Source: Acidobacteriota bacterium
GTDB lineage: Bacteria > Acidobacteriota > UBA6911 > RPQK01
Length of the DNA stretch: 64,000 nucleotides
Direction: 5' to 3'
NCBI GenBank assembly: GCA_041946865.1
Contig: JBHGBF010000028.1
Location: 4,257-68,256 of the forward strand
A program made the translations under genes and the position numbers. Positions 531 through 64,000 of this stretch are shown here, one piece after another (position 1 is the first letter of the stretch; each line of letters starts with the position of its first letter). A model generated the notes under the pieces. The model was not told where the DNA came from, ran no database searches, and saw only the letters and a list, made by a program, of their open reading frames with translations.

Positions 531-785
531 GTGTTGAAAAGGTCCTCGGACTGGCGGCGCGAACCGGGACGGGGACAGGTGATCATCGTCCGGTAGCGGA
601 TGACCCGACGCGCTCCGCTAGACCGACGTTCCGCTGTCCGCTTGTAGTTCCGCCTTCAGTCCGGTTTTTGCAAACGTAGATCCTACTATCGACATAGCTC
701 TGAAGAGCCCGCCAGAAGGCGTAGCTACGAACGGGTCAGGGAGCGGCAGAGGGAGGCCGGCGCCTTGTCAGGAGCCCTTCCCCGG

Positions 786-4478: not shown

Positions 4479-5207
4479 GTGGAGACCTGGGCGGACCCTC
4501 AGACCCGTGAGGCGCTGATCCACGCATCCGGTGACAGTCGCCGCCTGGTTCGTGTCCGTGCGGCGGCGGCACTCGCCGAATGCCCTGCTAATCTGATTCC
4601 TGAGAGGTCGCGACCGAACGTCGAAGCGGCTCTGAACGAGCTCGAAAAGGCGCTCCGATCGCGACCGGACGACTGGGCGTCAAACTTCGACCTGGGCAAT
4701 TTCTACCTGGACCGGGGCCGGCTGAGCGAGGCCCGGCTGTCCTTCGAGCGCGCTACTCGGCTGCGCCCCGACACACTCATGCCGTGGGTCAATCTTTCGA
4801 TCACCTGTGCCCGGTCGGGCGACAATTTGGGCGCTGGCCAGGCGTTGCGCAGGGCGCTCCAAGTACAACCGGACAGCCCCGTCGCCAATTTCAATCTTGC
4901 GCTTTTGAAGGCTGAAGACGGTGAAACCGCCGAGGCTGAAAGGCTCTTACGGCAAGTTCTGAAAAGTGAGCCGGGGATGCATCAAGCAGCCTACAACCTG
5001 GCGGTTCTACTCGGCGAAAGAAAAGACTACCGCCAGGCGGTTCTCTGGTGCCGGCGAGCCGTGGCCTTGTGTCCGGAAGAAGGGCGCTACCGCGAGACTC
5101 TGGCCCTCTACCTCCAGCGAACAGGCCTGTCTACGCCCCCACCAACACGTCGTCAAGACGGACCGGGCGGTGTTCCCGATGGGACTGGGCGGCGGCCAGG
5201 GCCGTGA
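4479..5207 (+). CDS. HEAT/TPR repeat protein
   Basis: The 242-aa ORF has an N-terminal HEAT-like 'RLVRVRAAAALAE' segment followed by TPR-like 34-aa repeats. Its low-complexity C-terminus overlaps the convergent iolG-like gene by 77 nt. Confidence 0.45.
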   Translation: METWADPQTREALIHASGDSRRLVRVRAAAALAECPANLIPERSRPNVEAALNELEKALRSRPDDWASNFDLGNFYLDRGRLSEARLSFERATRLRPDTLMPWVNLSITCARSGDNLGAGQALRRALQVQPDSPVANFNLALLKAEDGETAEAERLLRQVLKSEPGMHQAAYNLAVLLGERKDYRQAVLWCRRAVALCPEEGRYRETLALYLQRTGLSTPPPTRRQDGPGGVPDGTGRRPGP

Positions 5208-6156
5208 CGACCGCCATGCGGGCATCTTCGCCGGTAACGGGCTCGGGAGCGTCGCGAAGAATGGCGTCGGTAAACGCCGACAATTCGGCCACGAAGCTGT
5301 CCGAGTACCGATCCATGAAGGAGCTCAAAGGGACATCGCGTCTGACGCCGCTGCTGTCACAGACAATAGCCTGGTTGGGATAGCTATTCAGCGTCATAAT
5401 CGATCCCCGGCTGCCGAAAACCTCAACCCGCTGATCGACCCCGTAGGCGGTTTGCCGGCTGTTGTCGATCGACCCGATGACGCCGTTAGCAAATCGCAGC
5501 ATGATCATCGCGGTATCGACGTCGCCTGCCCGGCCGATCCTCGGGTCGATTCGAACGCTCGCCGCTGTAAAGACCTCTTCGACTTCCGCGCCGATCAGAT
5601 AGCGGGCCATGTCGAAGTCGTGAATCGTCATGTCCAAGAACAATCCGCCGGAGGTTCGGATGTATTTTATCGAAGGTGGAGCCGGCTCCCGACTGACGAT
5701 GTGCAGCAGTGAGGGTTCGCCGATCTCCTGGGACACGATTGCTTCGCGCACGCGCTTGAAGCTCGGATCGAAACGCCGGTAAAAGCCCACCTGAAACTTC
5801 ACGCCGGCCTTCGCCACGACCTGCAGCGTTTCGCCGATCTCCGCCAGCGAGTGAGAGATCGGTTTGTCACACAAGACATGCTTTCCGGCAAGGGCGGCCT
5901 GCCGAGAAATGACCGCCTGGGTGGCAATTGGAGTGCAGACCAGGACAGCCTCGATGCCTGGATCGCTAAGGGCGTCCTGGTAGTCATCCGATACCCGCGG
6001 GACATCAAACAAGCCCGCCAGGCGCTGGGCCGCCTCGTAATCGGTGTCGACGACCAGCGACAGCGTGGCGCTGGGGATGCGCTGCGCAAGGTTCTGGGCA
6101 TGGATCCGACCCGTGCGCTCGGCGCCGATCAGTGCGACGTTGATTCCATCCGGCAT
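5131..6156 (-). CDS. iolG: Gfo/Idh/MocA family oxidoreductase, inositol 2-dehydrogenase-like
   Basis: A Rossmann N-terminus 'VALIGAERTGRIHAQNL' and a Gfo/Idh/MocA C-terminal domain are present. It is the last gene in the minus-strand iolD-iolB-mmsA cluster. A GGAAG ribosome-binding site precedes the ATG. Confidence 0.7.
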   Translation of the reverse strand: MPDGINVALIGAERTGRIHAQNLAQRIPSATLSLVVDTDYEAAQRLAGLFDVPRVSDDYQDALSDPGIEAVLVCTPIATQAVISRQAALAGKHVLCDKPISHSLAEIGETLQVVAKAGVKFQVGFYRRFDPSFKRVREAIVSQEIGEPSLLHIVSREPAPPSIKYIRTSGGLFLDMTIHDFDMARYLIGAEVEEVFTAASVRIDPRIGRAGDVDTAMIMLRFANGVIGSIDNSRQTAYGVDQRVEVFGSRGSIMTLNSYPNQAIVCDSSGVRRDVPLSSFMDRYSDSFVAELSAFTDAILRDAPEPVTGEDARMAVVTALAAAQSHREHRPVRLDDVLVGA

Positions 6157-6212
6157 AATTCTTCCGTTTCAGGTTCAACCTTACTCAGCGCCTCTTTGCG
6201 TGGTTTCTGGCT

Positions 6213-7703
6213 TCAGAATTTTCGCGACCATTCGGGGAGCCAGCGCTCGATGACCACCTTGGTCTGAGTGAAGAACTCGACGGCATGCTTGCCCTGCGCA
6301 TGCAAAGTCCCGAAGAAGCTGTTCTTCCATCCGCTGAAAGGGAAAAACGCCATAGGTGCAGCCACGCCGATATTGATCCCGACGTTGCCGGCCTGTGCTT
6401 CATAGCGGAACTTGCGGGCGGCGGCTCCGCTGATCGTGAACAAGCAGGCCATGTTCCCATACTCGCCGCTGTTAACCAATTCAATGGCTTCCTCGACTGT
6501 CCGGACATGCATCAGACCGAGCACGGGGCCAAAGATTTCCACGGTCGCCAGGATCCCGCCCGGTCGAATGCCCTCGAGCACGGTGGGACGCAGGAAATTG
6601 CCTCTTTCATAACCGGGAATCACGACTTCCCGGCCGTCGACCACAATCTCTGCCCCCTCCTCCAGACCCTTACCGATCGAGTTGGAAATGCGCGCTTTGC
6701 TTTCCGGGCTGATGACAGGGCCCATCTGCACGCCCGGATCCAGGCCGTACCCCACCACCCGGCTCGCGGCAGCCTCAGCGAGCGCTGGCCGGAAAATGCG
6801 GTCGGCTTCCCCCACGGTAATCGCCAGCGAGGCCGCCAGGCACCGTTGCCCGGCGTTCCCGAAGGCACTATCGGCAATGATGCCCGTGGTTATCGCCACG
6901 TCGGCGTCAGGCAGGACGATCAGGGCATTCTTGGCTCCTCCCTGCGCCTGTACCCGCTTGCCGTTTGCGGCGGCGCGAGCATAGACATGCCGTGCCACCC
7001 GGGTCGATCCCACAAAGGTCACGGCCTGAACCGCCGGATGATCAAGCAGCGCATTAACCGTGTCCGCGCCACCGTTCAGGAGATTCACGACTCCCGCGGG
7101 AAACTCCGTTTCCTCCACCAGACGAAACACTTTCTGCAGCGTGATCGGGGTCCGTTCCGAAGGCTTGACAATGACCGTATTACCGCAGGCCAGGGCGTAA
7201 GGCAGATACCAGAAAGGAATCATGCCGGGGAAGTTGAACGGGCAGAGGATGGCGGCCACGCCGACCGGTTGGCGGATCATGTACTCGTCCACACCCGGCG
7301 CCGCGTCCTCGCAAAAGTCACCCATCATCAGGCTGGGAATCCCGCAGGCCACTTCGACATTCTCGATGGCCCGGCGCATTTCGCCGCGCGCCTCGTCAAG
7401 GGTCTTGCCGTTTTCCATCGTGATCGTGCGCGCCAGATCCTCGAAGTTGGCCTCGAGCAGGGCTTTCAGTTTGAACAGAAACTGAATTCGGGTGGGGGCG
7501 GGGACTCGTCGCCAGGCAGGGAAGGCGGCCTCGGCGTGACGGACCGCCCGGTCGACCTCTGGGGCAGGCGTGAGCGGGACACAGCCGAGCAGGTCGGCCG
7601 TGGCGGGGTTACTGACCTGCAGATATTCCGCGCCTCCGGGCTCCACCCAGGCACCGTTCACGTAATTGAGAAGGTTGGTTTGACTAAGCATGGCTTTTGT
7701 CAT
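6213..7703 (-). CDS. mmsA: CoA-acylating methylmalonate-semialdehyde dehydrogenase (IolA/MmsA)
   Basis: This is an aldehyde dehydrogenase family protein ('NYVNGAWVE', catalytic-region 'FGNAGQRC'). I trimmed the start from 7871 to the Met at 7703 to give the typical ~497 aa. Confidence 0.85.
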
Positions 7704-7731
7704 TTGGGTTTTTGATCCGAAGCGGTTGCCG

Positions 7732-9630
7732 CTACTCCCCCGCCTCGAAGAAGTATCTCTCCTTCTTGCGCATTTCTTCCCAGGCCTTCCTGGCTTCCCG
7801 CACTCCGGGCATCTCGCTGACCTCAGCGACGTGGACGTCCCACCAGCTCTCGTACCCGGGCACCCCGACATAGCGGTCGCTGTTGATCGTGATCACCGTA
7901 GTCCGGTCGGTCTTCCTGGCTTCTTTCAAGGCGGAGGCCAGGTCCTGGTAGGTCAGGCAAGGAATGACGTGGGCGCCCAGGCTGCGGGCATTAGCGGCAA
8001 AATCGATCAGAAGAGGCTCGACCTCCTCGCCGGCGGAGTCTCCGGGCAAGACACCGTCTTTCCTATACGCGTACCGCGTCCCGAAGCCGTCCTGGCCGAG
8101 CGAGCGGCTCAAGCCTCCGATGCTTTTGAACCCCCCATTGTCAATCAGAACCACGATCAGCTTGTAACCTTCCTGGATCGAGGTGGCGAGATCGGACGAG
8201 AGCATGAGGTAGCTGCCGTCACCCACAATCACGTACACGTCTCGCTCCGGCGCCGCCATCTTCGCGCCCAGGCCTCCGGCGATCTCATAGCCCATGCAGC
8301 TGTAGCCGTACTCCATATGGAAATTCTTGGAGTGGCGCGCCCTCCAGAGCTTATGCAAATCTCCCGGAGCGCTGCCGGCGGCATTGATCATGATCGCATC
8401 CGGACCTGATAGCTCGTTGACGGCTCCCAGAATCTCGCCCTGGCTCGGCAAGGGCTCGTTTCGTATACCGTAAATCCGATCGACCTCTGCCTCCCACTCG
8501 TCGTGCAGGCGGCAGCTCTCCAGGCGGTACTGCCCGTCAACCTGCCAGCCCTCCAGCAGGCTGCCCATTTCCTGTAACGTCACGCGGGCATCCCCGATCA
8601 GGCACAAGGCAAAGTGTTTTCCGGCATCGAAACCGGTTACGTTGATATTAATAAAGCGAACGGCTGGGTTCTGAAACGCGGTCTTGGAGGCGGTGGTGAA
8701 ATCGCTATAGCGGGTTCCGACGCCGATGATCAGGTCCGCATCACGGGCGATCCGATTGGCGGCCAGCGTCCCGGTCACTCCGACAGCGCCCAGGTTTAAC
8801 GAATGGTCGTAACGAAGGCTTCCCTTCCCGGCCATCGTCTCGCCCACGGGAATGCCGGTTCGGTCGACCAGCTCGCGCAGCGTTTCGGTCGCGTCCGAGT
8901 AAATCACCCCGCCCCCGGCAATCAGCATGGGGCGACGGCTCGCCCGGATCAGCTCCACGGCGCGCACGATCGCCTCGCGGTCAGGCCGATTACGCGGAAT
9001 CCTCCACACCCGGCGGCGAAAGAACGCTTCCGGGTACTCGAACGCCTCCGCCTGAACGTCCTGGGGTAGCGCGAGGGTCACAGCGCCGGTCTCAGACGGG
9101 CTTGTCAGGACGCGCATCGTCTCCGGCAACGCGGTCAGAAGCTGGTCGGGACGGTTGATGCGGTCCCAGTACCGGCTCACCGGCTTGAAACAGTCGTTCA
9201 CCGAGATGTCCTGGCTCTGCTCCCACTCGAGCTGCTGCAGGACGGGCGCAACGTTGCGCCGGGCAAAAATGTCGCCGGGAAGGAGAAGGACCGGAAGGCG
9301 GTTGATCGTAGCGACAGCCGCACCGGTGATCATGTTCGTGGCGCCGGGACCGATGGAGGAAGTGCAAACCAGCGTCTGAAGCCGGTTCTTCACCTTCGCA
9401 TAGGCGACCGCGGTATGCACGGCCGCCTGCTCGTTCCGTGACTGGTAATAGCGGAAATCAGGCATCTGCTGCAAAGCCTGGCCAATACCGGCGATGTTGC
9501 CATGCCCGAAAATGCCGAAGCACCCGGCGAAAAACGGCACTTGTACGCCATCACGTTCGACCTGCTGTTGTTTCAAGAAAGCAAGGAGGGCCTGGGCCAT
9601 AGTCAGGCGCCGAGTCGCAGGCGCGGTCAT
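7732..9630 (-). CDS. iolD: 3D-(3,5/4)-trihydroxycyclohexane-1,2-dione acylhydrolase (TPP enzyme)
   Basis: The 632-aa protein has the thiamine-pyrophosphate enzyme fold ('[15 protein letters not shown]' N-terminal domain and a 'GDGSYLM' TPP-binding motif). It overlaps iolB by 4 nt. Confidence 0.8.
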
Positions 9631-10538
9631 AGTTTTCTTGCCTCCGTCAGGTTATAGACAGGCACCCGCGGGTCAGGGCTTGCGTACGAACCCTTCACCC
9701 ACGCGTACTGGGGGTCGTCAGTCGCGGCCAGGCTCTGGGCGCTGCCCGCCAGGACGTTCAGATAGTAGGTGGTGTAACCAACCGGGCTTGAAACGGGATG
9801 ATAGCCTTCCGGGATCAGCACGACATCATGGTCGCGGGCCGTGACCGTGGCGTCGATCGGGCGTCCTGCCAACTGCAACGGCGAATCCGGCCCCGTGTAG
9901 ACCCGCTGCAGGGCGTAGCCCCCCGGCCGGTCGAACCGGTAGTAGTAGATCTCGTCCAGATCAGCTTCGACCAGGGCGCCGGCGGCGTCTTCCCGATGGC
10001 GGTCGTGCTTGTGCGGGGGATAGCTCGACCAGTTTCCGCCGGGCGTGTAGACCTCGACCACCACGAGCCGTTCGGAAGGAAATCCCGGCGGCATGATGTT
10101 GTTGATCTGGCGTGTGGCATGGCCCCCGCCGCGGATTTCGACGCCCACCTGATCGGGAGTCACCAGGTGAGGGGGGAAGCTCGATCCCGCCGCGGCAGAA
10201 GCGATGGCCCATTCGCAGGGGGTAACGGCGCCGACGCAGAACGTGGTGTACGGCGGCAAATAGAGGGCGTAGGGAAGACCGGCGAAGACATCCGGACGCC
10301 GGCCTGCTCCGTGCCAGTCTCCGCGGTTCGAGCTGACATCAAGCACCCCACTGAGCACTACCAGGGCCAGTTCCTGCCCGCCCGTCTCGGACTGCCATTG
10401 TCCACCGGCGGCCAGTCGTCGGACCTGGAACCAGAGCGTATCCCAGCCCGCCTCTTCCGGGCGCACCTCGACAATCACGGCCGGGTCGTCGGATCGGCCG
10501 GGATGAATCATGAGGTTCGTGGAGTCGTACTGTTTCAT
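9627..10538 (-). CDS. iolB: 5-deoxy-glucuronate isomerase
   Basis: The 303-aa cupin-fold protein has the IolB-like 'YPPHKHDRH' metal-binding motif and sits within the iol cluster. Confidence 0.75.
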   Translation of the reverse strand: MKQYDSTNLMIHPGRSDDPAVIVEVRPEEAGWDTLWFQVRRLAAGGQWQSETGGQELALVVLSGVLDVSSNRGDWHGAGRRPDVFAGLPYALYLPPYTTFCVGAVTPCEWAIASAAAGSSFPPHLVTPDQVGVEIRGGGHATRQINNIMPPGFPSERLVVVEVYTPGGNWSSYPPHKHDRHREDAAGALVEADLDEIYYYRFDRPGGYALQRVYTGPDSPLQLAGRPIDATVTARDHDVVLIPEGYHPVSSPVGYTTYYLNVLAGSAQSLAATDDPQYAWVKGSYASPDPRVPVYNLTEARKL

Positions 10539-10581
10539 GGCACAACTGAAGGAGGAAGCCGCCTCGCACGCGCGTCAGCCT

Positions 10582-11679
10582 TCACCCTTCGCCCTGCTTC
10601 ACATCCGGATTCGGCAGCATGAAGTCCCGCACCACGGCCATCAGGTCGTGAACGGCTTCAATAAAGCCGCGCAGCGTGCGGACCGTGGCCCCAAATCCGT
10701 CGAACTCGGCGAGTGTCATCCCGTCCGGATCATAGGCTCGCCGGAAATCAGGGATCATCCGGTAGAGGGCATCGATGATTTCCGGGCTGACCGGACGGTC
10801 GATCGTCCTCTCCACTTTCAAGTCTGAGGCATTCGCCTTGCGTGCCCACTCGCAGGGCATCGAATGGATGAAATCGCCGCCAATCAGCTCCGTCCAGTGC
10901 CCCAAATGACGGTAAGCCGCCACAAGCAGCCGGGCCCGGTAACCGCGTTCCTGAAAGATGCCGTATGCCCGCTTGAACGTCGCAATCCCCGCCCACCTCA
11001 GGTAGGACGGATCTATATCGATCTCGTCCCGCCTGGCCAGGACTTGCATCCAGTCATCATTGCGTCCCACCATGATGGTCGCCACCGGCGACATGTGAGC
11101 GATGTCCAGACCGCCGGCCTCGCGGCGTTCCAGGCCGCGCTCAACAGCTTCCGCTACGGCCACAGCTTGAGAAACGGAAAAACTGACGGTCGCGTTAATG
11201 CTGACGCCCCGGAACGTGGCCTCTTCGATGGCCGGGATCCCCGCCGCTGTCGCCGGGATCTTCACCTGCATGTTGGGAGCAAGCGAATTGAAGTGATCGG
11301 CTTGTTGGACCAGGGTCTGGGTATTGCGGTAGTAGGCGGGGTTCGTCTGGATTGAAAGCCTCCCTTTCTTGCCCTGGTGCCGCTCGAATACAGGCAGAAG
11401 CAACCGGGCGCCGTGGGTGGCTATCTCCTCGATCAGCCGCCACGCAATCTCCGTCTCCGACCAGGTGGCGTTGCGCGTGATAATGCGGTTCAGCCGCTCA
11501 CGCCATTGCGGCATCTCCTTCTTCAGCACTCCCAGTACGATCACTGGATTGGTGGTGGCGCCGACAGCGCCGTGCTCAAGGCCGTACGACAACTCCTCAG
11601 TGGAACAAGAGTCGTTCCAGTAATCGGTAGGAGTGCTCGAGACCATCTGACGCAGGGGACTTAAAGCGACTTCAGGCAT
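10582..11679 (-). CDS. Transaldolase family protein (long Tal type)
   Basis: The 365-aa ORF has 'TTNPVIV', the catalytic-lysine region 'QVKIPATAAG' and 'INATVSFS', which are transaldolase signatures. Confidence 0.7.
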   Translation of the reverse strand: MPEVALSPLRQMVSSTPTDYWNDSCSTEELSYGLEHGAVGATTNPVIVLGVLKKEMPQWRERLNRIITRNATWSETEIAWRLIEEIATHGARLLLPVFERHQGKKGRLSIQTNPAYYRNTQTLVQQADHFNSLAPNMQVKIPATAAGIPAIEEATFRGVSINATVSFSVSQAVAVAEAVERGLERREAGGLDIAHMSPVATIMVGRNDDWMQVLARRDEIDIDPSYLRWAGIATFKRAYGIFQERGYRARLLVAAYRHLGHWTELIGGDFIHSMPCEWARKANASDLKVERTIDRPVSPEIIDALYRMIPDFRRAYDPDGMTLAEFDGFGATVRTLRGFIEAVHDLMAVVRDFMLPNPDVKQGEG

Positions 11680-11745
11680 GCCCTTCTCCAGAAAACTAGA
11701 AGTCTGATAGTTTCAAGCTAGCTGAGAACAGACGAAAGAACAAGG

Positions 11746-11825
11746 AAAGCGGGCGCCGCGGAGCCGCAAGCACAGCGCTTTTCAGCGGACCGTCAGCGGA
11801 CGGGGAGCGCGTCGGGTGCGTGCCG
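11746..11825 (-). repeat. GC-rich hairpin intergenic repeat, copy A (inverted relative to copy B)
   Basis: The reverse complement of this copy aligns with 61549..61623 at about 90% identity over ~75 nt (core 'CCGACGCGCTCCCCGTCCGCTGACGGTCCGCTGAAAAGCGCTGTGCTTGCGGCTCC'). It lies 62 nt upstream of the transaldolase start, in sense orientation. Confidence 0.55.
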
Positions 11826-11865
11826 TTAAGGAGTGCCCATTTCGAACGGTGCAGTGTCGAAGCCG

Positions 11866-13191
11866 TTACGAGAACCGGGTTCGCTTCCAGAGGGCGGCGG
11901 TGCAGACGGTCAGGACCGCCACGGTCGCCGTCACAAGCACAACCATCCAAAAGGGGTTCATGCTCAAGTCCGGAGTAACGGTCCCGAGACCTAACCAGAC
12001 GAAAACCGCCAGCGCGAGCACGATGATCAGGAAGTCCCACCAGGCGCGCTTGGGTGTTTCGCGCGACAGAGGGTCGTCCCCCGTAAGCGCCGCCTCGACA
12101 CGGGCCGGGTCTATGCCGTAACGCCCGCATTCCCGCATCATGGCCGCCCGCCAGGAAGCCTGCTCTGAGTGAGGCGCCTCGGCGCGGCTGATGGCCACGG
12201 CCCCACCGACAATGATCAAAGAGCCGAGAATCACCATCAACTGATAGGGTGCGCCTTTTCCGTGAAGCTCGCCGAAGACCAACGCGCCCCAGGCGAGGCC
12301 CCAGAGCTGGTTCGTGTTCGAAAGCGGAATTCCCCGCGCTATACCCACATATTTAGCGGCGTACTGTTGGAAAAGGTCCCCAATCACCCAGCAAAAGCCG
12401 CCCAGGAAGAGCCAGAACAGCGAAGAACGCAGCGCGGAGAGCTCGCCGCTGAACACCGAGACCCCCCCGACAAAGGAAATGGTGAGAATACCGATAGTGA
12501 CTAATTCGCCCAGGGTGAAAATCGTGACAAAGGAGAGCGGATTCATGCCGCTGATGTACGCCTTACGGTAGGGGATGTACATGGTGCCCCAGAGCAAGCC
12601 CGCGCCCAGCGCGGCCGCAAGGCCGGCGCCCGCCCGGTCAGACAGGCCGGCCGGTTGCTGGCTCGTCGCCAGGCCGAGCACGCATGCCCCTGCGACAATG
12701 GCAATGGCCCCCCCGAGGACTTTCGCCCACGGTCCAGCCCCCGCGCCCCGCAACTCCTTGAAAAGGAGGACGCCCCAGAAGAGGCCCACGAGGCTGTTCG
12801 TGTTCCAAAGGGGAAAGGCCACCGAGAGACCGATGTCCCGGATGGCAAAAATCGTCAGCGTGTTGGCCACCGCCCAGAGAGCGCCGGCCAGGATGGCCCA
12901 GGGGATCAAGTGCGGCTTCTCGCGCAGATCCCTCCACACGTAGGTAGTGCCCTTTAGCGCCATTGGCAGGGTCCAGCGGGCGACAAAGACACCGACCACC
13001 ATGCCCATCGAGATCAGGAATGGGGAGAAGCCCAAGGTGACGAGCTTCGTCGGGGCTTCTGCCGCGCCCAGCCACGCCCCTGCCGCAAGCCCGCACATGA
13101 CACCAAGCCGATGAAGAGAAAGCACACCAGTTTTGGGAAGAGTCGCCGAGCCTGTAGCCATTCGAGTCTCCTGCAAGCCGACCACGGACAC
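11866..13191 (-). CDS. DMT-superfamily sugar transporter (GRP / GlcU-RhaT-like) with C-terminal two-TM extension
   Basis: Two EamA-like halves each end in '...LFKELRG / ...VFGELHG' motifs typical of the glucose/ribose porter family. The protein has about 12 predicted TM segments. Confidence 0.55.
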   Translation of the reverse strand: MSVVGLQETRMATGSATLPKTGVLSLHRLGVMCGLAAGAWLGAAEAPTKLVTLGFSPFLISMGMVVGVFVARWTLPMALKGTTYVWRDLREKPHLIPWAILAGALWAVANTLTIFAIRDIGLSVAFPLWNTNSLVGLFWGVLLFKELRGAGAGPWAKVLGGAIAIVAGACVLGLATSQQPAGLSDRAGAGLAAALGAGLLWGTMYIPYRKAYISGMNPLSFVTIFTLGELVTIGILTISFVGGVSVFSGELSALRSSLFWLFLGGFCWVIGDLFQQYAAKYVGIARGIPLSNTNQLWGLAWGALVFGELHGKGAPYQLMVILGSLIIVGGAVAISRAEAPHSEQASWRAAMMRECGRYGIDPARVEAALTGDDPLSRETPKRAWWDFLIIVLALAVFVWLGLGTVTPDLSMNPFWMVVLVTATVAVLTVCTAALWKRTRFS

Positions 13192-15074: not shown

Positions 15075-15287
15075 GTAGTCGAAGGTCGGATCCTGGCCGG
15101 CCTGCGGTGTCGATGCTGTACCGGTCTGCAGAGTCGCCACGAGCAGCGGCGGATGAAAAATCATGATTGTTTCTCCGTTTTTCTACTTTCCATCACATCG
15201 GGGAGCGCAGCAACCTGCCTGCCTGTGCGTCGAGAGCACCAATCTGACCGGCGCCACAAGCAGGCAAGACACCCGCGCCCCCAGGGA

Positions 15288-17776: not shown

Positions 17777-17943
17777 GGCGTGAAGTTATAGCTGAGGTCG
17801 TCGCTGACCTGCAAGCACGCCAAGACGTGGCGAAAAAGGGTCCTCGACCGAGCGGTGTTTTACCGCCCGTTCGCACTCCCCCGCCCTCAGGCGGGTCTCC
17901 GCATATTTCTGGACCCCGTTACCTTTTCTCGCCCGTGATTACA

Positions 17944-17959
17944 GAGCCGCTTGCGGCTC
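17944..17959. promoter_or_regulatory. Perfect 16-bp dyad GAGCCGC-TT-GCGGCTC (candidate operator) in the GH116 upstream region
   Basis: The palindrome is seen directly. Half-sites GAGCCGC/GCGGCTC recur in other intergenic regions (11757, 18093, 37083, 61597). Confidence 0.35.
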
Positions 17960-18129
17960 TTCCTGTAACGCGTTCTAGCCCCGGTTGCGGTTGGCTGCGG
18001 GGTTACTGTTACGCGGCTCCGAAATGCGTATAAAGTGCAGGGCAACGAGGGGCCGAGGTTTTATCAGGCCGCGAGGCGACAGAGGCGCCGGCGCTTGCGG
18101 CTCGGTGACCACGTCACTACAATCGGCCC

Positions 18130-20697: not shown

Positions 20698-20913
20698 GGG
20701 CGAGGCCCGAAAGAGCCGCGCCGGAGTTACCTTAGTCCGAATTTGCCCCTGGAGATACTCGTCACACGGAGTCGAGCCGCCGGACTCCAGCGTGGTTCTG
20801 TGTACCGGCCCTTCGCGAAAAGCTCGTGATGGTCCCCCCGTTTGAGGTGCACCCGAAGACATGCCAGAATGGAGCAAAGCTTCCCAAGCTCTCAACTTCC
20901 CCAGGAGAGATTC

Positions 20914-22989
20914 ATGGGTTACAGGAGTTCATATCGTACCCTCTCGCTCGCCGTCCTCTCGGTTCTTCTCGTCGGGTTCTCCACAGAGGCCATCAAACAG
21001 TTGAATCGTCCAAGCTTCTCGAAGGTCGACTTTCTGACTCGCGAGCAGGTGGCCTTTGTCCGCCCCGGCCTCCAGTTGACCGTGCAGGACGTGTCTGTCA
21101 ACAACCGGACCGTTGCGGTGGTTTACCGAATCACTGACCCTCAGAGTTTGCCGCTTGATCGGCTGGGCGTCTTCACGCCCGGCGCCGTCAGCACCAACTT
21201 CGTTCTGGCCTATCTGCCACCCGAGCCGGCAGGAGTCCCCGACTATCAAGCCCTGACGCTTCGGCAGGTGACAAGTCCCCTGACCAACGTCACGACCCAG
21301 CAGCCGGGCACAGACCAGGGAGGGACGACCGAGGAGATAGAGCGGGGCACGTACCGGTACACCTTCAGGACCCAGCTTCCGGCGGAATTAGATCCGAGCG
21401 GCACTTATTCCGTCGGCATTTATGCGACCCGGGATCTGGCGGAATTTGATCTCGGTCCGTTTCACGCCAACCTGGTGGTGAACTTCAACCCGGCCAGCGG
21501 ACAGCCGCAGACAGTTCACGATGTCGTGAGCAACGCCGCCTGCCGTCAATGCCATGATCCTTCCATCCCCGACGCGGCGGTGGAAGCTCACGGTGGCGCC
21601 AGGCAGAAGATTGAGTTGTGCGTCCTCTGTCATACCCCGCAGCTGTTGGACCCGGACACCGGCCAGCCCCTCGACATGAAGATCATGACTCACAAGATCC
21701 ACATGGGAGAGCAGCTGCCTAGCGTGCAGGCGGGGCGGCCGTACCAGATCATCGGCTTTCAGCAGCGGACCATCGACTTTTCGCACGTGGTTTTCCCGCA
21801 GAGCATCATGAATTGCCAGACCTGCCACGGCGCCGGCCAAGAGGCGAACGAGCCGGGCGCTCCGGTGCAGCAGGAGGCGTTCCTGCTGCAGCCCGGCATG
21901 GAGGCTTGCGGGTCCTGCCACGACGACGTCAACTTCGCGACAGGCGAGAGCCATCACGGCATCCAGGTCACGTCAAATGCCCAGTGCCAGACCTGCCATC
22001 AGCCTTTTGGAGAGCACGAATTCGACGCTTCGATTCAGGGGGCGCACACTGTGGTGGCCGCATCCCAGCAACTCGAGGGGATCAACATCCAGATTCTGGA
22101 CGTAACCAGTTCCGGTCCCGGACAGAACCCATCGGTCCTGTTCAGCATGAAAAACCGTGCCGGCCAGGTGATTACTCCGAGCACGCTCAGTTTCTTCAAC
22201 CTGCTGATCGCCGGCCCCACGACCGACTACACCACGCTTATCAGCGAACCGGCTGCGACCGACTCAGTCGCCGCCGGCGAGAACTTCCGGTACACCTTCA
22301 AGGCGCCGATACCCGCCAATGCAGCCGGAACGTTCGCCGTGGGCGCCGAGGCCTATCGGAACCTCATGATCGACACGGGCGAACCGGAGTTGGCGCAGGT
22401 TCGCGAGACGGCTGAAAACCCTGTCAAGTATTTCGCGGTGACCGGCGAGGTTCAGCCAAGGCGAGTGGTCGTGACTGATGAACTGTGCGAATCCTGTCAT
22501 GAAAACCTGGCAATACACGGCGGGATCCGCCATAACGCCACCGAGTACTGCCAGTTCTGCCACAATCCGACGGCCACTGACGCTTCCCAGCGCCCGGCCG
22601 AACAGAATCCGCCGCAATCCATCGACCTGAAATTCCTGGTTCACAGGATCCACCGCGGAGAGCAACTGACCCGCGATTTCACAGTTTTCGGATTTGGTCG
22701 CCGGCCGATTAGCTTCAATGAGGTTCTCTTTCCGGGCGATCTGAGACTGTGCGCCAGTTGCCACGTGGACCAGACCTATCAGGTGCCGTCGATGGGCGTG
22801 GTGGCGACAACCGCGCCCAGGGAGTTTTACAGTCCGATTCCTCCCAACTCCTCGGCCTGCCTGGGCTGTCACGACACTCTGGACGCGGCCGCTCACACTT
22901 TCGTCAACACTTCGCAGTTCGGAGAATCGTGCGGCGCCTGCCACGGCCCGCAAGGGGAATTTGCAGTGGATAAGGAACACGCGCGGTAG
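20914..22989 (+). CDS. Decahaem c-type cytochrome, OmcA/MtrC-like four-domain architecture, secreted
   Basis: There are ten CXXCH motifs arranged 5+5 (CRQCH, CVLCH, CQTCH, CGSCH, CQTCH, then CESCH, CQFCH, CASCH, CLGCH, CGACH). Each pentahaem block is preceded by a haem-free domain of ~150-200 aa. The N-terminal signal peptide 'MGYRSSYRTLSLAVLSVLLVGFS' has no lipobox cysteine. AGGAGAG lies 5 nt upstream of the ATG. Confidence 0.7.
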   Translation: MGYRSSYRTLSLAVLSVLLVGFSTEAIKQLNRPSFSKVDFLTREQVAFVRPGLQLTVQDVSVNNRTVAVVYRITDPQSLPLDRLGVFTPGAVSTNFVLAYLPPEPAGVPDYQALTLRQVTSPLTNVTTQQPGTDQGGTTEEIERGTYRYTFRTQLPAELDPSGTYSVGIYATRDLAEFDLGPFHANLVVNFNPASGQPQTVHDVVSNAACRQCHDPSIPDAAVEAHGGARQKIELCVLCHTPQLLDPDTGQPLDMKIMTHKIHMGEQLPSVQAGRPYQIIGFQQRTIDFSHVVFPQSIMNCQTCHGAGQEANEPGAPVQQEAFLLQPGMEACGSCHDDVNFATGESHHGIQVTSNAQCQTCHQPFGEHEFDASIQGAHTVVAASQQLEGINIQILDVTSSGPGQNPSVLFSMKNRAGQVITPSTLSFFNLLIAGPTTDYTTLISEPAATDSVAAGENFRYTFKAPIPANAAGTFAVGAEAYRNLMIDTGEPELAQVRETAENPVKYFAVTGEVQPRRVVVTDELCESCHENLAIHGGIRHNATEYCQFCHNPTATDASQRPAEQNPPQSIDLKFLVHRIHRGEQLTRDFTVFGFGRRPISFNEVLFPGDLRLCASCHVDQTYQVPSMGVVATTAPREFYSPIPPNSSACLGCHDTLDAAAHTFVNTSQFGESCGACHGPQGEFAVDKEHAR

Positions 22990-27385: not shown

Positions 27386-27508
27386 AACACCGACCAGCTA
27401 TCCAACTGCAAGACTGACCTGGGCGCCTGCGGGCCGAAGGAAATGGGATCCAAGGCTCATACGACGATTTCAAGTCAGTCCGGTCAGTCGGTCAGTGGGC
27501 CAGTCGCT

Positions 27509-35815: not shown

Positions 35816-36169
35816 CTATTTCCGCTGCCGGCGGTCGTAACACGCTCGAACGACGGTTTTGATGCCGCCCCTCACATTGAAATCACCGACCACCTCGCAC
35901 CGAAGAGGATCGCAGGCGGAGACAATGTCGTCAAGGATCTTGTTCGTCACGTGCTCGTGAAAAATGCCCTGGTCGCGATACGAAAAGATGTAAAGCTTCA
36001 GGGACTTCAGCTCAACAATCTTCGCGTCGGGGACATACTTGATTCGAATGACGCCGAAGTCCGGCTGTCCGGTCCGTGGGCAGACCGCCGTGAATTCCGG
36101 ACAGGTGATTTCCACCTCATACTCCCGGCCGGGATACTGGTTGGGAAAGGTCTCGAGTTGGCAGAACAC
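35816..36169 (-). CDS. queF: NADPH-dependent 7-cyano-7-deazaguanine reductase (type I QueF)
   Basis: The 117-aa protein has the catalytic Cys in 'TAVCPRTGQPDFG' and the 'E(S/L)K(S/L)(K/Y)(L/Y)(Y/F/W)' motif as 'ELKSLKLYIF'. Confidence 0.9.
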   Translation of the reverse strand: MFCQLETFPNQYPGREYEVEITCPEFTAVCPRTGQPDFGVIRIKYVPDAKIVELKSLKLYIFSYRDQGIFHEHVTNKILDDIVSACDPLRCEVVGDFNVRGGIKTVVRACYDRRQRK

Positions 36170-36990
36170 TAGTTGTCCCCGTAGACAGAAATGATGTTAA
36201 GTCCCGTCAAGGCTCGCAGCTCCACTTCAATCGCCACCGCTTCCTCGCGCGTCACTCGTTTCAACGGCCGTGCCGGGTAATCGACCCCGTCATGGCTTCC
36301 GCGCGTCTGGATGACCCAGCTCTGAGGATACGGTCGCGTCGGGGTGTTCAACTGCACCTCGTCCGGCTGTAACCGGTTCAGTATAGCCGCAAAATCCCGG
36401 ATTTCACCTATGTTGACCCGCGTGAACATCATCTGGATCCCGAGAAAGCCACGGTATGTCTGGCGAAAAGCAGCCGTAGCAGAAATGATTCCCTCGAGGC
36501 TGACTCCGGAGACCGGCCGGTTGATGCGGTGAAACGTCTGTTCGGTCGCCCCATCGAGCTTGACAAAGACTTTGTCGCAGTTGCTCAAATCCTCCCGGAC
36601 CTCGGGGAGGTGAAGGAGCGTCCCATTGGTCAGGACCAGCACCGGCTTTCGCGTGTAGGCCTTCAAACCCTCCACAATCGCGCCCAGGTTGGCCGCCAGC
36701 GTCGGCTCGCCGCTTCCCGAGACCGTCATGATGTCCGCCTCGCGCCACCGGCTCTCGCTCAGATCCCGCATGACTTTCTCAGTCGGAACGAACACTTGTC
36801 TCTCATTGATCCGGACCTGGATAAAACCGAGCTGGCAGTAAGTACAGTTGAACGAGCAGATCGAGTTGACGCAGATAGGGTCTATACCGAGAGACATACC
36901 GACGCGCCAGCTGCGGACCGGACCATAAACGGAGGAGACGTCTTCGAGCCGCTGAACCTTCACTACTTCCTGGCTGGAATTTCCTCGCAT
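36169..36990 (-). CDS. Radical SAM protein (PflA/NrdG-activase-like size and CX3CX2C spacing)
   Basis: The protein has the 'CSFNCTYCQ' cluster and a 'TVSGSGEP' SAM-binding motif. The stop abuts the queF start. The start is ambiguous (36897, 36990 or 37065). Confidence 0.7.
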   Translation of the reverse strand: MRGNSSQEVVKVQRLEDVSSVYGPVRSWRVGMSLGIDPICVNSICSFNCTYCQLGFIQVRINERQVFVPTEKVMRDLSESRWREADIMTVSGSGEPTLAANLGAIVEGLKAYTRKPVLVLTNGTLLHLPEVREDLSNCDKVFVKLDGATEQTFHRINRPVSGVSLEGIISATAAFRQTYRGFLGIQMMFTRVNIGEIRDFAAILNRLQPDEVQLNTPTRPYPQSWVIQTRGSHDGVDYPARPLKRVTREEAVAIEVELRALTGLNIISVYGDN

Positions 36991-37009
36991 GCCAAGCGTA
37001 TTATACCAA

Positions 37010-37086
37010 CCCGCCACTCGGGCTCCGGAGCGGCCGGCTAAAAAGCGCAGGCCTCTTGCCTGCATGTGGCCCTGCTTTGCGTCCGC
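37010..37086 (+). repeat. Degenerate copy D of the AAAAAGCGC...CTTGC...GTGGC..GCTTT intergenic element
   Basis: The segment 'ctAAAAAGCGCaggcctCTTGCctgcatGTGGCcctGCTTTGC' shares order and spacing with copies A and B. It lies about 70 nt upstream of the HD-domain gene, in sense orientation. Confidence 0.3.
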
Positions 37087-60670: not shown

Positions 60671-60825
60671 GAACCCTCAGACGAAACGGACGGGGAGCGC
60701 GCAGGCTGGAGGTCTGCCGCTCCCAGCGTCCCCGTCACCCCGCGCTTCCCCTCAGTCAGTAATCCCGATCACTGATCTGGAATTTTCTGCCCGCTAATCT
60801 TCTGCCGCTTACGAAGAGGGGGAGC

Positions 60826-61239
60826 GTGCCGATCTGCCTGTACTTTCCGGAGTTCGCGATCGAGAGAGAACTGGTCCGTGAAGTCTGCCGAAGAAGCGGT
60901 TTGCCGGCTCCCCGTTACGTCTTCCCCGCGCCGGATCTGCTGGCTCAGATCGAGAACGCCTTGAAAGTCCTGGATGCGGTAGAGAAAGCCTGCCTGCCTG
61001 AAATTGTCCAGAGGCGGTGCCGCTTTTTCATCCAGGAATATGTCCTGCCCGAGCTTGAAAACTTCCTCCACCTTGCGCGAGCGATCGCCGAGACGCCTCG
61101 CGGCAGCGAGGCCGAGGCCCGCGTGCTCGAACGCTTCGGCATCTCGGTCGAGCTGGGAATCATCAGGCGCAACTCCAGGACCAAGGCCCTCAGCAGATCC
61201 GACCAGGAATTCCTCCAAGGCTTCAACATCGTGTGGTGA
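60826..61239 (+). CDS. Hypothetical protein (GTG start)
   Basis: The 137-aa ORF has AGGGGGAG 5 nt upstream of the GTG and no recognisable domain. Confidence 0.45.
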   Translation: MPICLYFPEFAIERELVREVCRRSGLPAPRYVFPAPDLLAQIENALKVLDAVEKACLPEIVQRRCRFFIQEYVLPELENFLHLARAIAETPRGSEAEARVLERFGISVELGIIRRNSRTKALSRSDQEFLQGFNIVW

Positions 61240-61548
61240 AGCGGGGGCCGTTCGGCACCCGAACCGACCATACGGGCTACCGCCTCGACGAAAGCCTCCT
61301 GATCGCTGGAAAAGGGGCCGTAACCGCTCAGTCTTGTTCGTAGCTCCGCTTTTGGGCCGGTTCGCTCAAAGCACTACGGGGAGCGAGGCGAATGGATTGT
61401 AAGGCTTGATTCAAAGCCCGCCCGAAGGCGGAACGACAAACAAAACTGGGACTTAGCCCCACTGATTTGGAGGTGAAAGGGCGAATGGCGCAGCGAGATC
61501 CACACCCGCGCCGGATGCGTGCGTTCAAAACGAATCGATCCTGGTTCC

Positions 61549-61623
61549 GGCACTCACCCGACACGCTCCCCGTCCGCTGACGGTCCGCAAAAAGCGCTCC
61601 GCTTGCGGCTCTGTGGCGCTTTC
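61549..61623 (+). repeat. GC-rich hairpin intergenic repeat, copy B
   Basis: This copy is about 90% identical to the reverse complement of 11746..11825. It contains AAAAAGCGC-tccg-CTTGCGGCTC-tgtg-GCGCTTTC, which can form an AAAGCGC/GCGCTTT stem. It lies about 140 nt upstream of the nitroreductase-like gene. Confidence 0.55.
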
Positions 61624-61759
61624 AGAGCCTCGCCGTACGAAGACTGGAGGGTTACCAGGGGGCCACAGAATTTGCTTGCTTCTCGGTTTCGATTTCGGTA
61701 GCTTTCACTCACTCGTTCATACCGGTCTGGGGCCCGCGGATTTGCGAGAGGAGTACAGG

Positions 61760-62914
61760 ATGAAAGCCAGATGGCCTTCAGACGGGATCTTCCACCGACA
61801 GCTCTTGGCCCTGATCAGGCTGGCCACGTTGGCGCCTTCAAAATACAACACGCAACCCTGGACCTTCGCGATTGAAAAGAACGCTGTGCGGATCTGCCCG
61901 AATCTATCCCGACGGCTTCCGGTCGCCGACCCGCACAACCGCGCGCTGTACATAAGCCTCGGCTGCGCGCTCGAGAACCTGCTCATCGGCGCCGCGTGTT
62001 ACGGTCTCCGCGCGGAGGTTGAGTACCACCTCGAGAACGACCGGGCCCACTCGATCCTGGTCCGTCTGACCCGTACGCCGGCCCGCCAGGGCGATCCCCA
62101 ATTGCTGCGGGCTATTGCCGACCGCCAGACTACACGCGGAAAGTACAGCGGAGACAGGATTGCATCGGCGGATCTGCGCTTGCTGGTCCACGCCAGCCGG
62201 GAAGAGGGAGTCCATTTCGGACTTCTTACCGGCCCCCACGAGGTCCGACCGATCTTTGCAGCCGTCCGGGAATCCAATCGCCGCGTACTCGCCGACAACG
62301 GCTTTCTCAGCGAGATCCTGTCCTGGATCCGCTTCACGCGGAAAGAGGCGGAGGCCACGCACGACGGACTCAGCAACACCGTCCTCGGGCTTCCACCGTT
62401 GCCCTCATGGCTCGCTGGGAAGGCCACGCGCAAGTTCGTGGTCCGTTGCCGGCTTCGCGACCGGGAGAAGCTCATTCCCGGGTCAGCAGCCGTGATGCTC
62501 TTTGCAGTCGCGCGCAACGACCCGCTGCATTGGATCGCAGCAGGACGAAGCTTCGAGAGGGTTGCCTTGACAGCTGCGAACTTGCACATCCGGCACTCTC
62601 ACCTGACTCCGGCCTGTGACGTCGTCCAGACTCGGATCCGGCTTTCGAGCTTCCTGGGGCTTTCCGACAGCGAGACCCCGGTGCTGCTGCTCCGGATCGG
62701 TTATGCAGACCCGTTGTCGGCTTCGCTGCGGCGGCCCGTAGCCGACGTTCTGGCGCCGCCGACCAGCACGGAGCCTGCCGGGGGCAGGCGCGCGGCGCAA
62801 TCATGGCTTCACACGGCGGGTGATTCCATCCACGGAGTGCATGGGGACAAGCTTCGAGGCATCCGGCTGGCCCTGGAAAAAGAAGGGCTGAGGAGCCCCG
62901 AGAGTCGCATGTAA
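61760..62914 (+). CDS. Nitroreductase family protein (two-domain, Acg-like)
   Basis: The start was trimmed to the Met 'MKARWPS' (GGAG ribosome-binding site). 'SKYNTQPWTF' and 'CALENLLIGAACYGL' are nitroreductase-fold signatures. Confidence 0.65.
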   Translation: MKARWPSDGIFHRQLLALIRLATLAPSKYNTQPWTFAIEKNAVRICPNLSRRLPVADPHNRALYISLGCALENLLIGAACYGLRAEVEYHLENDRAHSILVRLTRTPARQGDPQLLRAIADRQTTRGKYSGDRIASADLRLLVHASREEGVHFGLLTGPHEVRPIFAAVRESNRRVLADNGFLSEILSWIRFTRKEAEATHDGLSNTVLGLPPLPSWLAGKATRKFVVRCRLRDREKLIPGSAAVMLFAVARNDPLHWIAAGRSFERVALTAANLHIRHSHLTPACDVVQTRIRLSSFLGLSDSETPVLLLRIGYADPLSASLRRPVADVLAPPTSTEPAGGRRAAQSWLHTAGDSIHGVHGDKLRGIRLALEKEGLRSPESRM

Positions 62915-62956: not shown

Positions 62957-63119
62957 CAAAGCGGCGTGAGGTAGCCGCTGGCGCGCCTACTTGCGCCGCT
63001 GGCCTTAACGAACCCGCTTGCTTCGCTGAAAAGCGCTCGCGCGCGATCGAGCGTGCGGGTAGGCTTTTATCGTGGCCGGACTCTCCAGAGTCCGGTTGCC
63101 GGGCTCGCGAGAGCCCGGC
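62957..63119. repeat. Cluster of GC-rich hairpins / short direct repeats (REP-like)
   Basis: The cluster comprises a GCGGC...GCCGC hairpin (62961-62978), a 'GCCGCTGGC' direct repeat (62974 and 62995), a CGCTCG...CGAGCG hairpin (63034-63053), and tandem perfect hairpins CCGGACTC-TCCA-GAGTCCGG (63076-63095) and GCCGGGCTC-GCGA-GAGCCCGGC (63098-63119). Confidence 0.45.
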
Positions 63120-63120
63120 C

Positions 63121-64000
63121 ATCACCGGTAAGCCGCTCGGTGCGACTGCCGGCGCCAGGATTTTCGAACAGGGCGGTAATGCGATCGATTCCGCCTGCGC
63201 GATGCTGGCCGTTGTGTGCACCATGTATGACACCCTGAGCTGGGGTGGCGAGACGCAGGCGCTGATCTATAACCCGTTGACCAAAAAAGTCGTGGGCATC
63301 AACGGCCTGGGCGTTGCTCCCACTGGCGCCACCCCCGAATTTTTCAAACAGAAGAACCTGCGATTTCCCCCGGCTGAGGGGCCGCTTGCCGCCGTCACAC
63401 CCGGCAACCCGGGTGCGCTGATGGTCATGCTCGCCGAGTTCGGTACGCTTTCCCTCACACAGGTGCTGGCCCCAGCCCTCGAGATGGCCGGCGAAGGATA
63501 CCCCATCGAGGCGGAGCTGGTCAGGAGCATCAAACTCCACAGGAACAAGCTCAAGCAGTGGCCTTACTCGAGAAAAGTGTTTTTCCCTCATGCCGACCGG
63601 TCCGACGAACCCCCGCAGCCCGGCGAAATCTGGCGGCAGCCTGACCTGGCTGACACGCTCAGAAAGCTGGTCCAGGCCGAGGCCGACGCGCTCAAGGCGG
63701 GAAAGGACCGCAAACAGGCGATCTACGCCGCATACGACCGCTTTTATAAAGGCGACATCGCCGCCGAATTCTGCCGCGGCTCTCAGGAGCAGGGCGGGCT
63801 CCACACCCCGGCCGACCTCGCCAACTGGAAGGTCAAGATCGAAGAGCCCGTTATGACTACGTACAAGGGGATCGAGGTTTACAAGCTCACTTGTTGGACC
63901 CAGGGGCCGGTGATGCTCCAGGCGCTGAACATCCTCGAGCCGTTTGACCTGCAGGGAATGGGATACAATAGCGCTCGTTATATCCACACCCTCTACCAGG
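63121..64000 (+). CDS. Gamma-glutamyltransferase family protein, partial at window end; 5' end lacks canonical start/signal peptide
   Basis: An uninterrupted reading frame to the window edge carries GGT N-terminal signatures ('FEQGGNAIDSACAMLAVVCTMYDTLSWGGETQALIY'). The supplied track lists no ORF here. The frame is closed by a TAG at 62941, with no ATG/GTG/TTG before the conserved region. Confidence 0.6.
   Translation, partial: MTGKPLGATAGARIFEQGGNAIDSACAMLAVVCTMYDTLSWGGETQALIYNPLTKKVVGINGLGVAPTGATPEFFKQKNLRFPPAEGPLAAVTPGNPGALMVMLAEFGTLSLTQVLAPALEMAGEGYPIEAELVRSIKLHRNKLKQWPYSRKVFFPHADRSDEPPQPGEIWRQPDLADTLRKLVQAEADALKAGKDRKQAIYAAYDRFYKGDIAAEFCRGSQEQGGLHTPADLANWKVKIEEPVMTTYKGIEVYKLTCWTQGPVMLQALNILEPFDLQGMGYNSARYIHTLYQ

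Follow-up and report, generated by a model that had tools for sequence, protein, structure and literature searches.

The window, by which we mean the whole 64-kb stretch of DNA analysed (G+C, 60.6%), comes from an uncultured Acidobacteriota MAG and carries two related intergenic sequences, copies A and B. Their positions are as follows, where arm, spacer and 245-nt unit refer to parts of the repeat family described further below.

11760-11824, minus strand: copy A, a lone arm (arm HMM positions 1-64, E = 3.9e-17), between a sugar-transporter gene (11866-13191, stop-codon side) and a transaldolase-family gene (10582-11679, start-codon side)
61507-61523, plus strand: copy B, 17 nt from the inner end of the left arm, CGCGCCGGATGCGTGCG (nhmmer with the 245-nt unit)
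61524-61548, plus strand: copy B, spacer remnant of ~25 nt (nhmmer with the 245-nt unit)
61549-61614, plus strand: copy B, complete right arm (arm HMM positions 1-66, E = 5e-18), in a 520-nt gap with a conserved 137-aa ORF (60826-61239) upstream and a nitroreductase-like gene downstream

Copy A lies 41 nt past the transporter stop codon and ends 66-80 nt before the transaldolase ATG (11679). Copy B ends ~140 nt before the ATG at 61760, which is likely the start of the nitroreductase-like gene. Both neighbors of copy A belong to an inositol-catabolism-like cluster (5131-13191) whose members are a GFO/IDH/MocA oxidoreductase, an aldehyde dehydrogenase, a TPP enzyme, a KduI/IolB-family protein, the transaldolase-family protein and the sugar transporter; the cluster is syntenic in several related metagenome contigs. 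The 137-aa ORF upstream of copy B (equivalent to 1791-2204 of locus L037) carries no Pfam domain and precedes the nitroreductase-like gene in all relatives examined, and it is inverted in RPQK01, a related Acidobacteria MAG, compared with other lineages.

An earlier note, made from the sequence of this window, had proposed that A and B are copies of one element in opposite orientations, and blastn within the window bore this out: positions 11825-11753 and 61548-61619 align with 89% identity over 73 nt (E = 1.4e-19), so the two are a true, mutually inverted repeat pair. Each also shares polarity with its own downstream gene (transaldolase for A, nitroreductase-like for B), as had been described. 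The same note had observed that short ORFs across A and B translate to a common peptide. One frame of both copies does read GTHPTRSPSADGP, but this is a trivial outcome of the identical DNA, and the frames part right after a 1-nt indel. We rejected GTHPTRSPSADGP as a small gene: the frame is lost past that indel, the RPQK01 arms change residues in it, and the ORF at copy A overlaps the 3' end of the transporter gene.

Two further sites that had been counted as members, copy C (37010-37086) and copy D (63008-63035), are at chance level and lie outside the family. Copy C, on the plus strand, gave E = 3.6 with blastn and E = 0.35 with a profile built from A and B, and may overlap the 5' end of a radical-SAM ORF (36169-37065). 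Copy D is a 14-nt exact match only (blastn E = 0.4; A+B profile E = 0.57). The family profile found nothing at either site at E <= 200, and two other borderline matches of the A+B-only profile in the window score about the same as C and D. The degenerate motif given in the earlier note matches exactly A, B and C, with 0 matches expected by chance; since it had been written from A, B and C themselves, this test is circular and we gave it no weight. Beside copy D lies a different palindromic module, GGCTTTTATCGTGGCCGGACTCTCCAGAGTCCGG... (63041-63119), found in inverted pairs at L041 and at L062, and as one copy in L037/L038. A 306-aa ORF on the minus strand here (63067-63987) has no Pfam match and is probably spurious. 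From ~63117 the plus strand is 81-86% identical over 144 nt to related loci, inside or just upstream of their gamma-glutamyltranspeptidase genes, and the plus-strand frame 63117-64000 is open through the window end.

A genome scan with a 21-mer from the core of the repeat, CCCCGTCCGCTGACGGTCCGC, over one representative genome per species returned 21 loci: 16 contigs of RPQK01, 2 from the Acidobacteriota MAG DAOTAI01 and 3 from Actinobacteria. The Actinobacteria loci (L005, L008 and L012) match over the exact 21-mer only, with no similarity past the core, and were set aside as chance. In RPQK01 the core matches are often paired plus/minus, 84-106 nt apart, and many copies sit at contig ends, a location typical of an assembly-breaking repeat. 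A metagenome scan with a 25-mer found 26 stretches only, mostly from the source sample of RPQK01. This implies that the family is narrowly distributed.

Alignment of the loci defined the arm as 66 nt, GGCACGCATCCGACGCGCTCCCCGTCCGCTGACGGTCCGCAAAAAACGCTGCGCTTGCGGCTCTGT, with termini ACAGAGCCGC...GCGGCTCTGT. Its outer ends read ACAGAGCC.../...GGCTCTGT and its inner end GGCAC. The arm core holds GTCCGC twice, 11 nt apart, and the arm contains a small internal CCGTC-CGCT-GACGG hairpin. The intact unit consists of two inverted 66-nt arms flanking a spacer of ~24 nt, which makes it a near-perfect palindrome. This ~24-nt spacer occurs in both orientations, and other copies have different spacers of 43-130 nt, giving a range of 24-130 nt. 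RPQK01 and its source metagenome contain at least 16 distinct full elements, 131-251 nt long, plus lone arms; in most of 16 full elements the two arms are ~93-97% complementary. ORFs across full elements are short and inconsistent. As single-stranded DNA, the element of L009 folds into a hairpin of ~70 bp (-94.6 kcal/mol, z = -18.6), and the variant of L026 reaches -67.4 kcal/mol (z = -14.4). In RPQK01, most copies sit within a unit of ~245 nt that has ~20-nt terminal inverted repeats (TIRs) of its own, CTGCACTTTATACACATCT...AGATGTGTATAAAGTGCAG, and more repeated modules adjoin.

Copy A is 86-92% identical to the RPQK01 arms, and the same range holds for arm identity between the window and RPQK01 in general, compared with 70-79% for orthologous coding DNA and flanking intergenic DNA that cannot be aligned. 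Arm identity is partly inflated because the loci were found by exact 21- to 25-mer matches. The rest of the excess suggests either insertion after the lineages split or horizontal spread.

The family profile and the 245-nt-unit profile match only A and B in the window. By the latter, copy A is again a lone arm (11759-11829), and copy B corresponds to model positions 87-195 of the RPQK01 unit, on 61507-61616 (nhmmer, E = 1.3e-20 to 1.9e-22). Other remnants, possible remnants and related modules in the window are the following.

602-772, plus strand: mosaic remnant within the intergenic region 531-785
602-618, plus strand: short-type arm fragment, GACCCGACGCGCTCCGC, of the same type as in L026
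637-735, plus strand: palindromic 'H' module (blastn to L003/L059 in both orientations, E = 2e-10, and to L041)
745-772, plus strand: G-like module (blastn matches in RPQK01 loci)
17777-18129: third region, the intergenic DNA between a GH116 gene and an MFS gene, with several related pieces
17941-17960, inverted repeat without strand: collapsed palindrome, ACAGAGCCGCTTGCGGCTCT, outer ends of both arms fused, the interior missing
18015-18040, plus strand: TIR-like module, GGCTCCGAAATGCGTATAAAGTGCAG, resembling the TIR of the 245-nt unit (alone, nhmmer E = 0.16)
18041-18080, plus strand: 'G' module, GGCAACGAGGGGCCGAGGTTTTATCAGGCCGCGAGGCGAC, adjoining the TIR-like module
18092-18106, plus strand: outer-end fragment of a lone arm, CGCTTGCGGCTCGGT, with a 12-nt exact direct repeat of 17948-17959
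60687-60701, minus strand: possible 15-nt arm fragment, CGGACGGGGAGCGCG (15/15 exact against copy A, E = 0.005; arm HMM E = 0.18; borderline)
61413-61449, plus strand: H-like module, AAAGCCCGCCCGAAGGCGGAAC (blastn to RPQK01-type loci, E <= 1e-4)

In the third region, the outer ends of the collapsed palindrome match the arm termini, and it forms a small hairpin with z = -3.4. The TIR-like and 'G' modules together (18015-18080) are 87% identical to L001 over 61 nt (blastn, E = 1.5e-14) and also match L011, L016, L018, L007, L047 and L057. The fragment at 18092-18106, which corresponds to arm HMM positions 51-64, is weak when taken alone (E = 8.8). At the first mosaic, the A+B profile gave E = 0.075 on 593-652, and the 'H' module found there also occurs inside the element of L003. 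The H-like module near copy B lies ~60 nt upstream of the arm remnant and resembles a spacer sequence of L003, GTTCCGCCTTTAGGCGGGCTTT. The borderline fragment at 60687-60701 is 17 nt past the stop of a 3-keto-disaccharide hydrolase gene. Taken as a whole, the window contains no intact element but several decayed mosaics that belong to a single modular system of repeats.

Upstream of copy B, ~260 nt of extra intergenic DNA (61240-61506) is absent from all orthologous loci and matches no fetched locus except via the H-like module. Two other intergenic matches, 15201-15284 (73% to L002 over 84 nt) and 27474-27506 (94% to L050 over 33 nt), may represent conserved spacers at orthologous positions and not repeats. 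The window's own genome is represented here by the 64-kb window plus two short contigs. These Logan contigs, from independent short-read assemblies of the same strain, begin inside the copies (L022 in A, L065 in B); such breaks would be in keeping with more copies in that genome or in relatives that occur alongside it.

Close homologues of the proteins on either side led us to orthologous loci, and we compared the gaps at three sites.

Transporter-transaldolase gap (copy A): 186 nt in the window; 95 nt in L027-29 and 115 nt in L023-25, element absent; 262 nt in L026, with a two-armed variant
Gap from the 137-aa ORF to the nitroreductase-like gene (copy B): 520 nt in the window; 135, 176, 205 and 296 nt in relatives, element absent in 4/4 lineages (L032-L038)
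GH116/MFS gap (third region): 353 nt in the window; 55-159 nt in orthologues, element absent and unrelated palindromes in its place

From these comparisons, the repeat is a lineage-specific insertion at all three sites. The variant in L026 has shorter arms without CCGTCCGCTGACGGTC and a different spacer of 43 nt. Its presence in the same intergenic region as copy A could reflect old vertical inheritance followed by decay, as opposed to recent mobility. At the GH116/MFS spacer, L066/L068 and L069 carry unrelated palindromes at the same divergent site, the one in L069 (~750-880) being near-perfect and ~100 nt long. Three different palindromes in three lineages at this one spacer imply that several families exist and replace one another at the same spacers. 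Adjoining a GH116 glycosidase gene, window positions 20842-22989 encode a 715-aa multihaem cytochrome with MtrC/MtrF-like domains II/IV.

What the orthologous loci do share with the window lies between the repeat and the gene. At the transaldolase site, a block CCTTGTTCTTTC..TTCTCAGCTAGCTTGA.. stands directly before the start codon in all lineages, and at the nitroreductase site, a block of ~100 nt directly before the start codon is common to the three closer lineages. These host blocks (11680-11745 and 61656-61759) are kept with or without the repeat. Both could be read as TTGnnn-17 nt-TAGCTT, a weak promoter-like pattern that a consensus promoter scan did not call. We consider the blocks likely to be the true, if putative, promoter or leader regions of the two genes.

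The earlier note had described A and B as GC-rich hairpins closed by AAAGCGC/GCGCTTT and had taken this core as the defining trait of the family. Neither description held up. Folded as RNA, both strands of the two copies gave z = -0.17 to +1.04 against dinucleotide shuffles. Moreover, the GCGCTTT (3') half of the stem at copy A is host flank, since it can be aligned to the element-free orthologous site in L027. Rfam models returned 0 matches in the window at gathering thresholds. An E-value scan of the full elements L007, L009 and L026 hit generic long-hairpin models only (snaR-A and miRNA precursors), with 25-41 bits against cut-offs of 70-150 bits. In the arm-arm helix of 13 full elements, 97.3% of cells are paired and 45/60 pairs are invariant, and covariation was not above that of shuffles; because the copies are too similar, that test is uninformative. 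Invariant pairing fits recent copying of a DNA palindrome and provides no evidence for a selected RNA structure. A promoter scan around A and B found nothing relevant, and we discarded GGCAC...GC as a sigma-54 -24/-12 promoter, as its spacing is wrong. An intrinsic terminator scan found none in 11000-12500 and one in 60700-62200, at 61447-61461 on the minus strand, outside copy B.

The placement of A and B in sense orientation upstream of genes had been put forward as a rule. It stands on two cases, and it breaks down among the lone arms of related genomes, all of which are intergenic and which occur in every orientation. They are sense and upstream of a gene at A, B and L013, antisense at L002 and L019, between convergent genes at L050, and downstream of a gene at L048. 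Because lone arms face every way, we regard the sense-orientation pattern as a small-sample effect. The genes beside 20 related copies are unrelated housekeeping genes, including those for an ABC transporter, a chromate transporter, Ku, an M19 peptidase, a GH20 protein and an epimerase.

We also looked for an enzyme that could move the element. No transposase domain, Y1_Tnp included, was found in the ~48 ORFs of the window or in 20 ORFs beside related copies. Across ~60 loci, no arm pair encloses a gene or ORF, even when distant inverted pairs are included, and there is no candidate among the fetched loci for an autonomous insertion sequence with the same ends. In L010, L015, L026 and L003, no consistent direct repeat flanks the ACAGAG.../...CTCTGT ends; most RPQK01 copies have common flanks, being embedded in a larger unit that is itself repeated. 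The absence of a recognizable target-site duplication would fit, weakly, an enzyme of the HUH/RAYT type.

Taken together, we believe, with a probability of about 0.8, that copies A and B are decayed and probably immobile half-copies of a small, non-coding, selfish and mobile palindromic repeat of REPIN/MITE type, which occurs in a narrow clade of uncultured Acidobacteriota. Of the two options in the earlier note, the REP/MITE-like element is therefore the one we retain: A and B are arms of a multi-copy palindromic intergenic repeat with presence/absence differences between related genomes. In the mechanism that we propose, a transposase acting in trans would copy the unit by recognizing the arms or the long hairpin that they form in single-stranded DNA; it might belong to the HUH/RAYT-like tyrosine transposases or to the DDE enzymes. 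As long palindromes are presumably unstable, an instability discussed for REP dimers in PMC3733652, copies would then decay: A would have lost one arm, B most of one, and the copy at 17941-17960 its entire interior. These remnants would have no dedicated function; they lie upstream of host start-codon blocks whose conservation extends to loci without the element.

REPINs are REP doublets that form hairpins, decay to REP singlets and are mobilized by RAYT tyrosine transposases (Bertels & Rainey 2011, PMC3116915; PMC3337134). The family resembles them in having two inverted repeats and a short spacer that give a long hairpin (16 doublets in related genomes, remnants in the window). It is likewise multi-copy, strictly intergenic and non-coding, and its lone units look like doublet remnants, with copy B keeping a piece of its partner arm. 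Unlike REPIN/REP units of ~20-40 nt, however, the arms here are 66 nt and lack a terminal GTAG/CGTC tag: where GTAG does occur, in some copies, it is an internal variant (GGGTAGCG), and CGTC lies inside the stem. There is also no RAYT gene in the window or beside related copies, and most RPQK01 copies are embedded in the ~245-nt unit with its ~20-nt terminal repeats. REPINs have been described as mostly vertically inherited (bioRxiv 10.1101/2022.05.22.493013). Here, by contrast, similarity between genomes is higher for the arm than for the DNA around it, and this suggests horizontal spread. The GTAG- and CGTC-tagged REP super-families (PMC3733652) are also intergenic palindromes, often as head-to-head dimers. 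Their rules (stems of 8-9 bp opening with complementary A/T, loops of 4-5 nt and a CCA tail) do not hold here, where CGTC is in the stem rather than in an unpaired terminal tag and the unit is about twice as long.

Long inverted repeats are also known from the same phylum. In cultured Acidobacteria, genes for a RAYT-like tyrosine transposase ("TIRYT") are reported to be flanked by long TIRs (Di Nocera et al. 2013, PMC3733652), and TIR repeat families linked to such genes are described from other phyla too. In Koribacter versatilis, the TIR set of ORF 1552 is part of a family of repeated DNA (PMC3733652). Such repeats occur as singles, dimers and clusters at moderate copy number, and some are self-complementary, as in the family described here. 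Unlike them, the arm does not contain the GGGGWSAS motif but has GGGGAGCG or GGGTAGCG, and no tyrosine transposase gene lies between or beside arms in any locus examined. We consider it plausible that the TIRYT-associated repeats are a relative of the arm family.

MITEs are short (about 50-500 bp) and non-coding, with terminal inverted repeats; bacterial ones with an extended palindromic structure include ERIC/IRU, Correia elements and RUP. Compared with bacterial MITEs as surveyed in PMC11602168, our elements are similar in size (130-250 nt), short and non-coding, with inverted repeats that give a long stem-loop and no ORF. Their copies are dispersed, intergenic and assembly-breaking, and they show presence/absence at orthologous sites (three in the window). 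They differ in having no recognized target-site duplication and no parent insertion sequence with matching ends among the fetched loci, and nearly the whole element is palindromic rather than the ends alone. The architecture is closest to REPINs with their decayed singlets and to strongly palindromic MITEs. The family seems to be a so far undescribed representative of a well-known type of element.

We weighed other explanations against the half-copy reading. The remnants might have been co-opted, either as a 3'-end mRNA stabilizer or terminator for the upstream gene or as a protein-binding site. REP-type repeats are reported to lie mostly downstream of coding regions, with a hypothesized role in transcription termination and mRNA stabilization (PMC3733652). 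Copy A would fit this, at its short distance past the transporter stop, as would the lone arms at L002, L019, L048 and L050, which lie 4-85 nt past stop codons. A 24-nt core that is identical in three different genomes and contains GTCCGC twice could also point to such a site. However, the core identity is an artefact of searching with the core, and arms found by synteny (L026 and window 602-618) lack CCGTCCGCTGACGGTC entirely. In addition, the scan found no terminator-like site at A, lone arms have no strong structure, and the element is dispensable at orthologous loci. Co-option is therefore improbable in our view.

It is just as doubtful that A and B are lone TIRs that remained when a full-length insertion sequence was excised or deleted, rather than derivatives of a non-autonomous palindrome. 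The arms do behave as long TIRs around a variable center of 24-130 nt, and the RAYT-like genes with long TIRs in Acidobacteria, such as Koribacter versatilis ORF 1552 (PMC3733652), provide a precedent. Against this stand the ~60 loci in which no arm pair encloses an ORF, the short spacer kept by copy B, which is typical of a non-autonomous doublet, and the lack of transposase domains nearby.

A more elaborate version, which we would hold no more firmly than these two, has the arm, the H and G modules and the TATAAAG-containing terminal repeats form a clade-specific modular palindrome system, spread between species by an unrecognized enzyme. Some lone arms would then persist since their 25-31-nt core, with its two GTCCGC motifs 11 nt apart, became a binding site for a host protein.

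The other option in the earlier note was a shared cis-acting RNA or attenuator. In the form weighed here, A and B would be transcribed within the 5' UTR of the gene that follows, whether as attenuator, riboswitch-like leader or sRNA. This reading is effectively refuted: although both copies are sense and 66-140 nt upstream of a start codon, and a local AAAGCG/CGCUUU-closed hairpin can be drawn for A, orthologous genes (75-89% protein identity) in four to five lineages lack the element yet keep the start-codon block downstream of it, lone arms elsewhere are antisense or between convergent genes, part of the stem at A is host DNA, and neither Rfam, excess fold stability nor covariation of the arm pairing speaks for an RNA.

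We regard the finding as real but ordinary; it opens no new biological question. For annotation, the practical advice is to mask such sequences as repeats instead of listing them as candidate riboswitches or leaders; the repeats also account for the contig breaks found when this lineage is assembled. The family could be useful as a marker of strains, and a complete genome could lead to its transposase. For the biology of the group, the finding shows that long palindromic intergenic repeats exist in uncultured Acidobacteriota as lineage-specific families, with fast turnover at the same sites.
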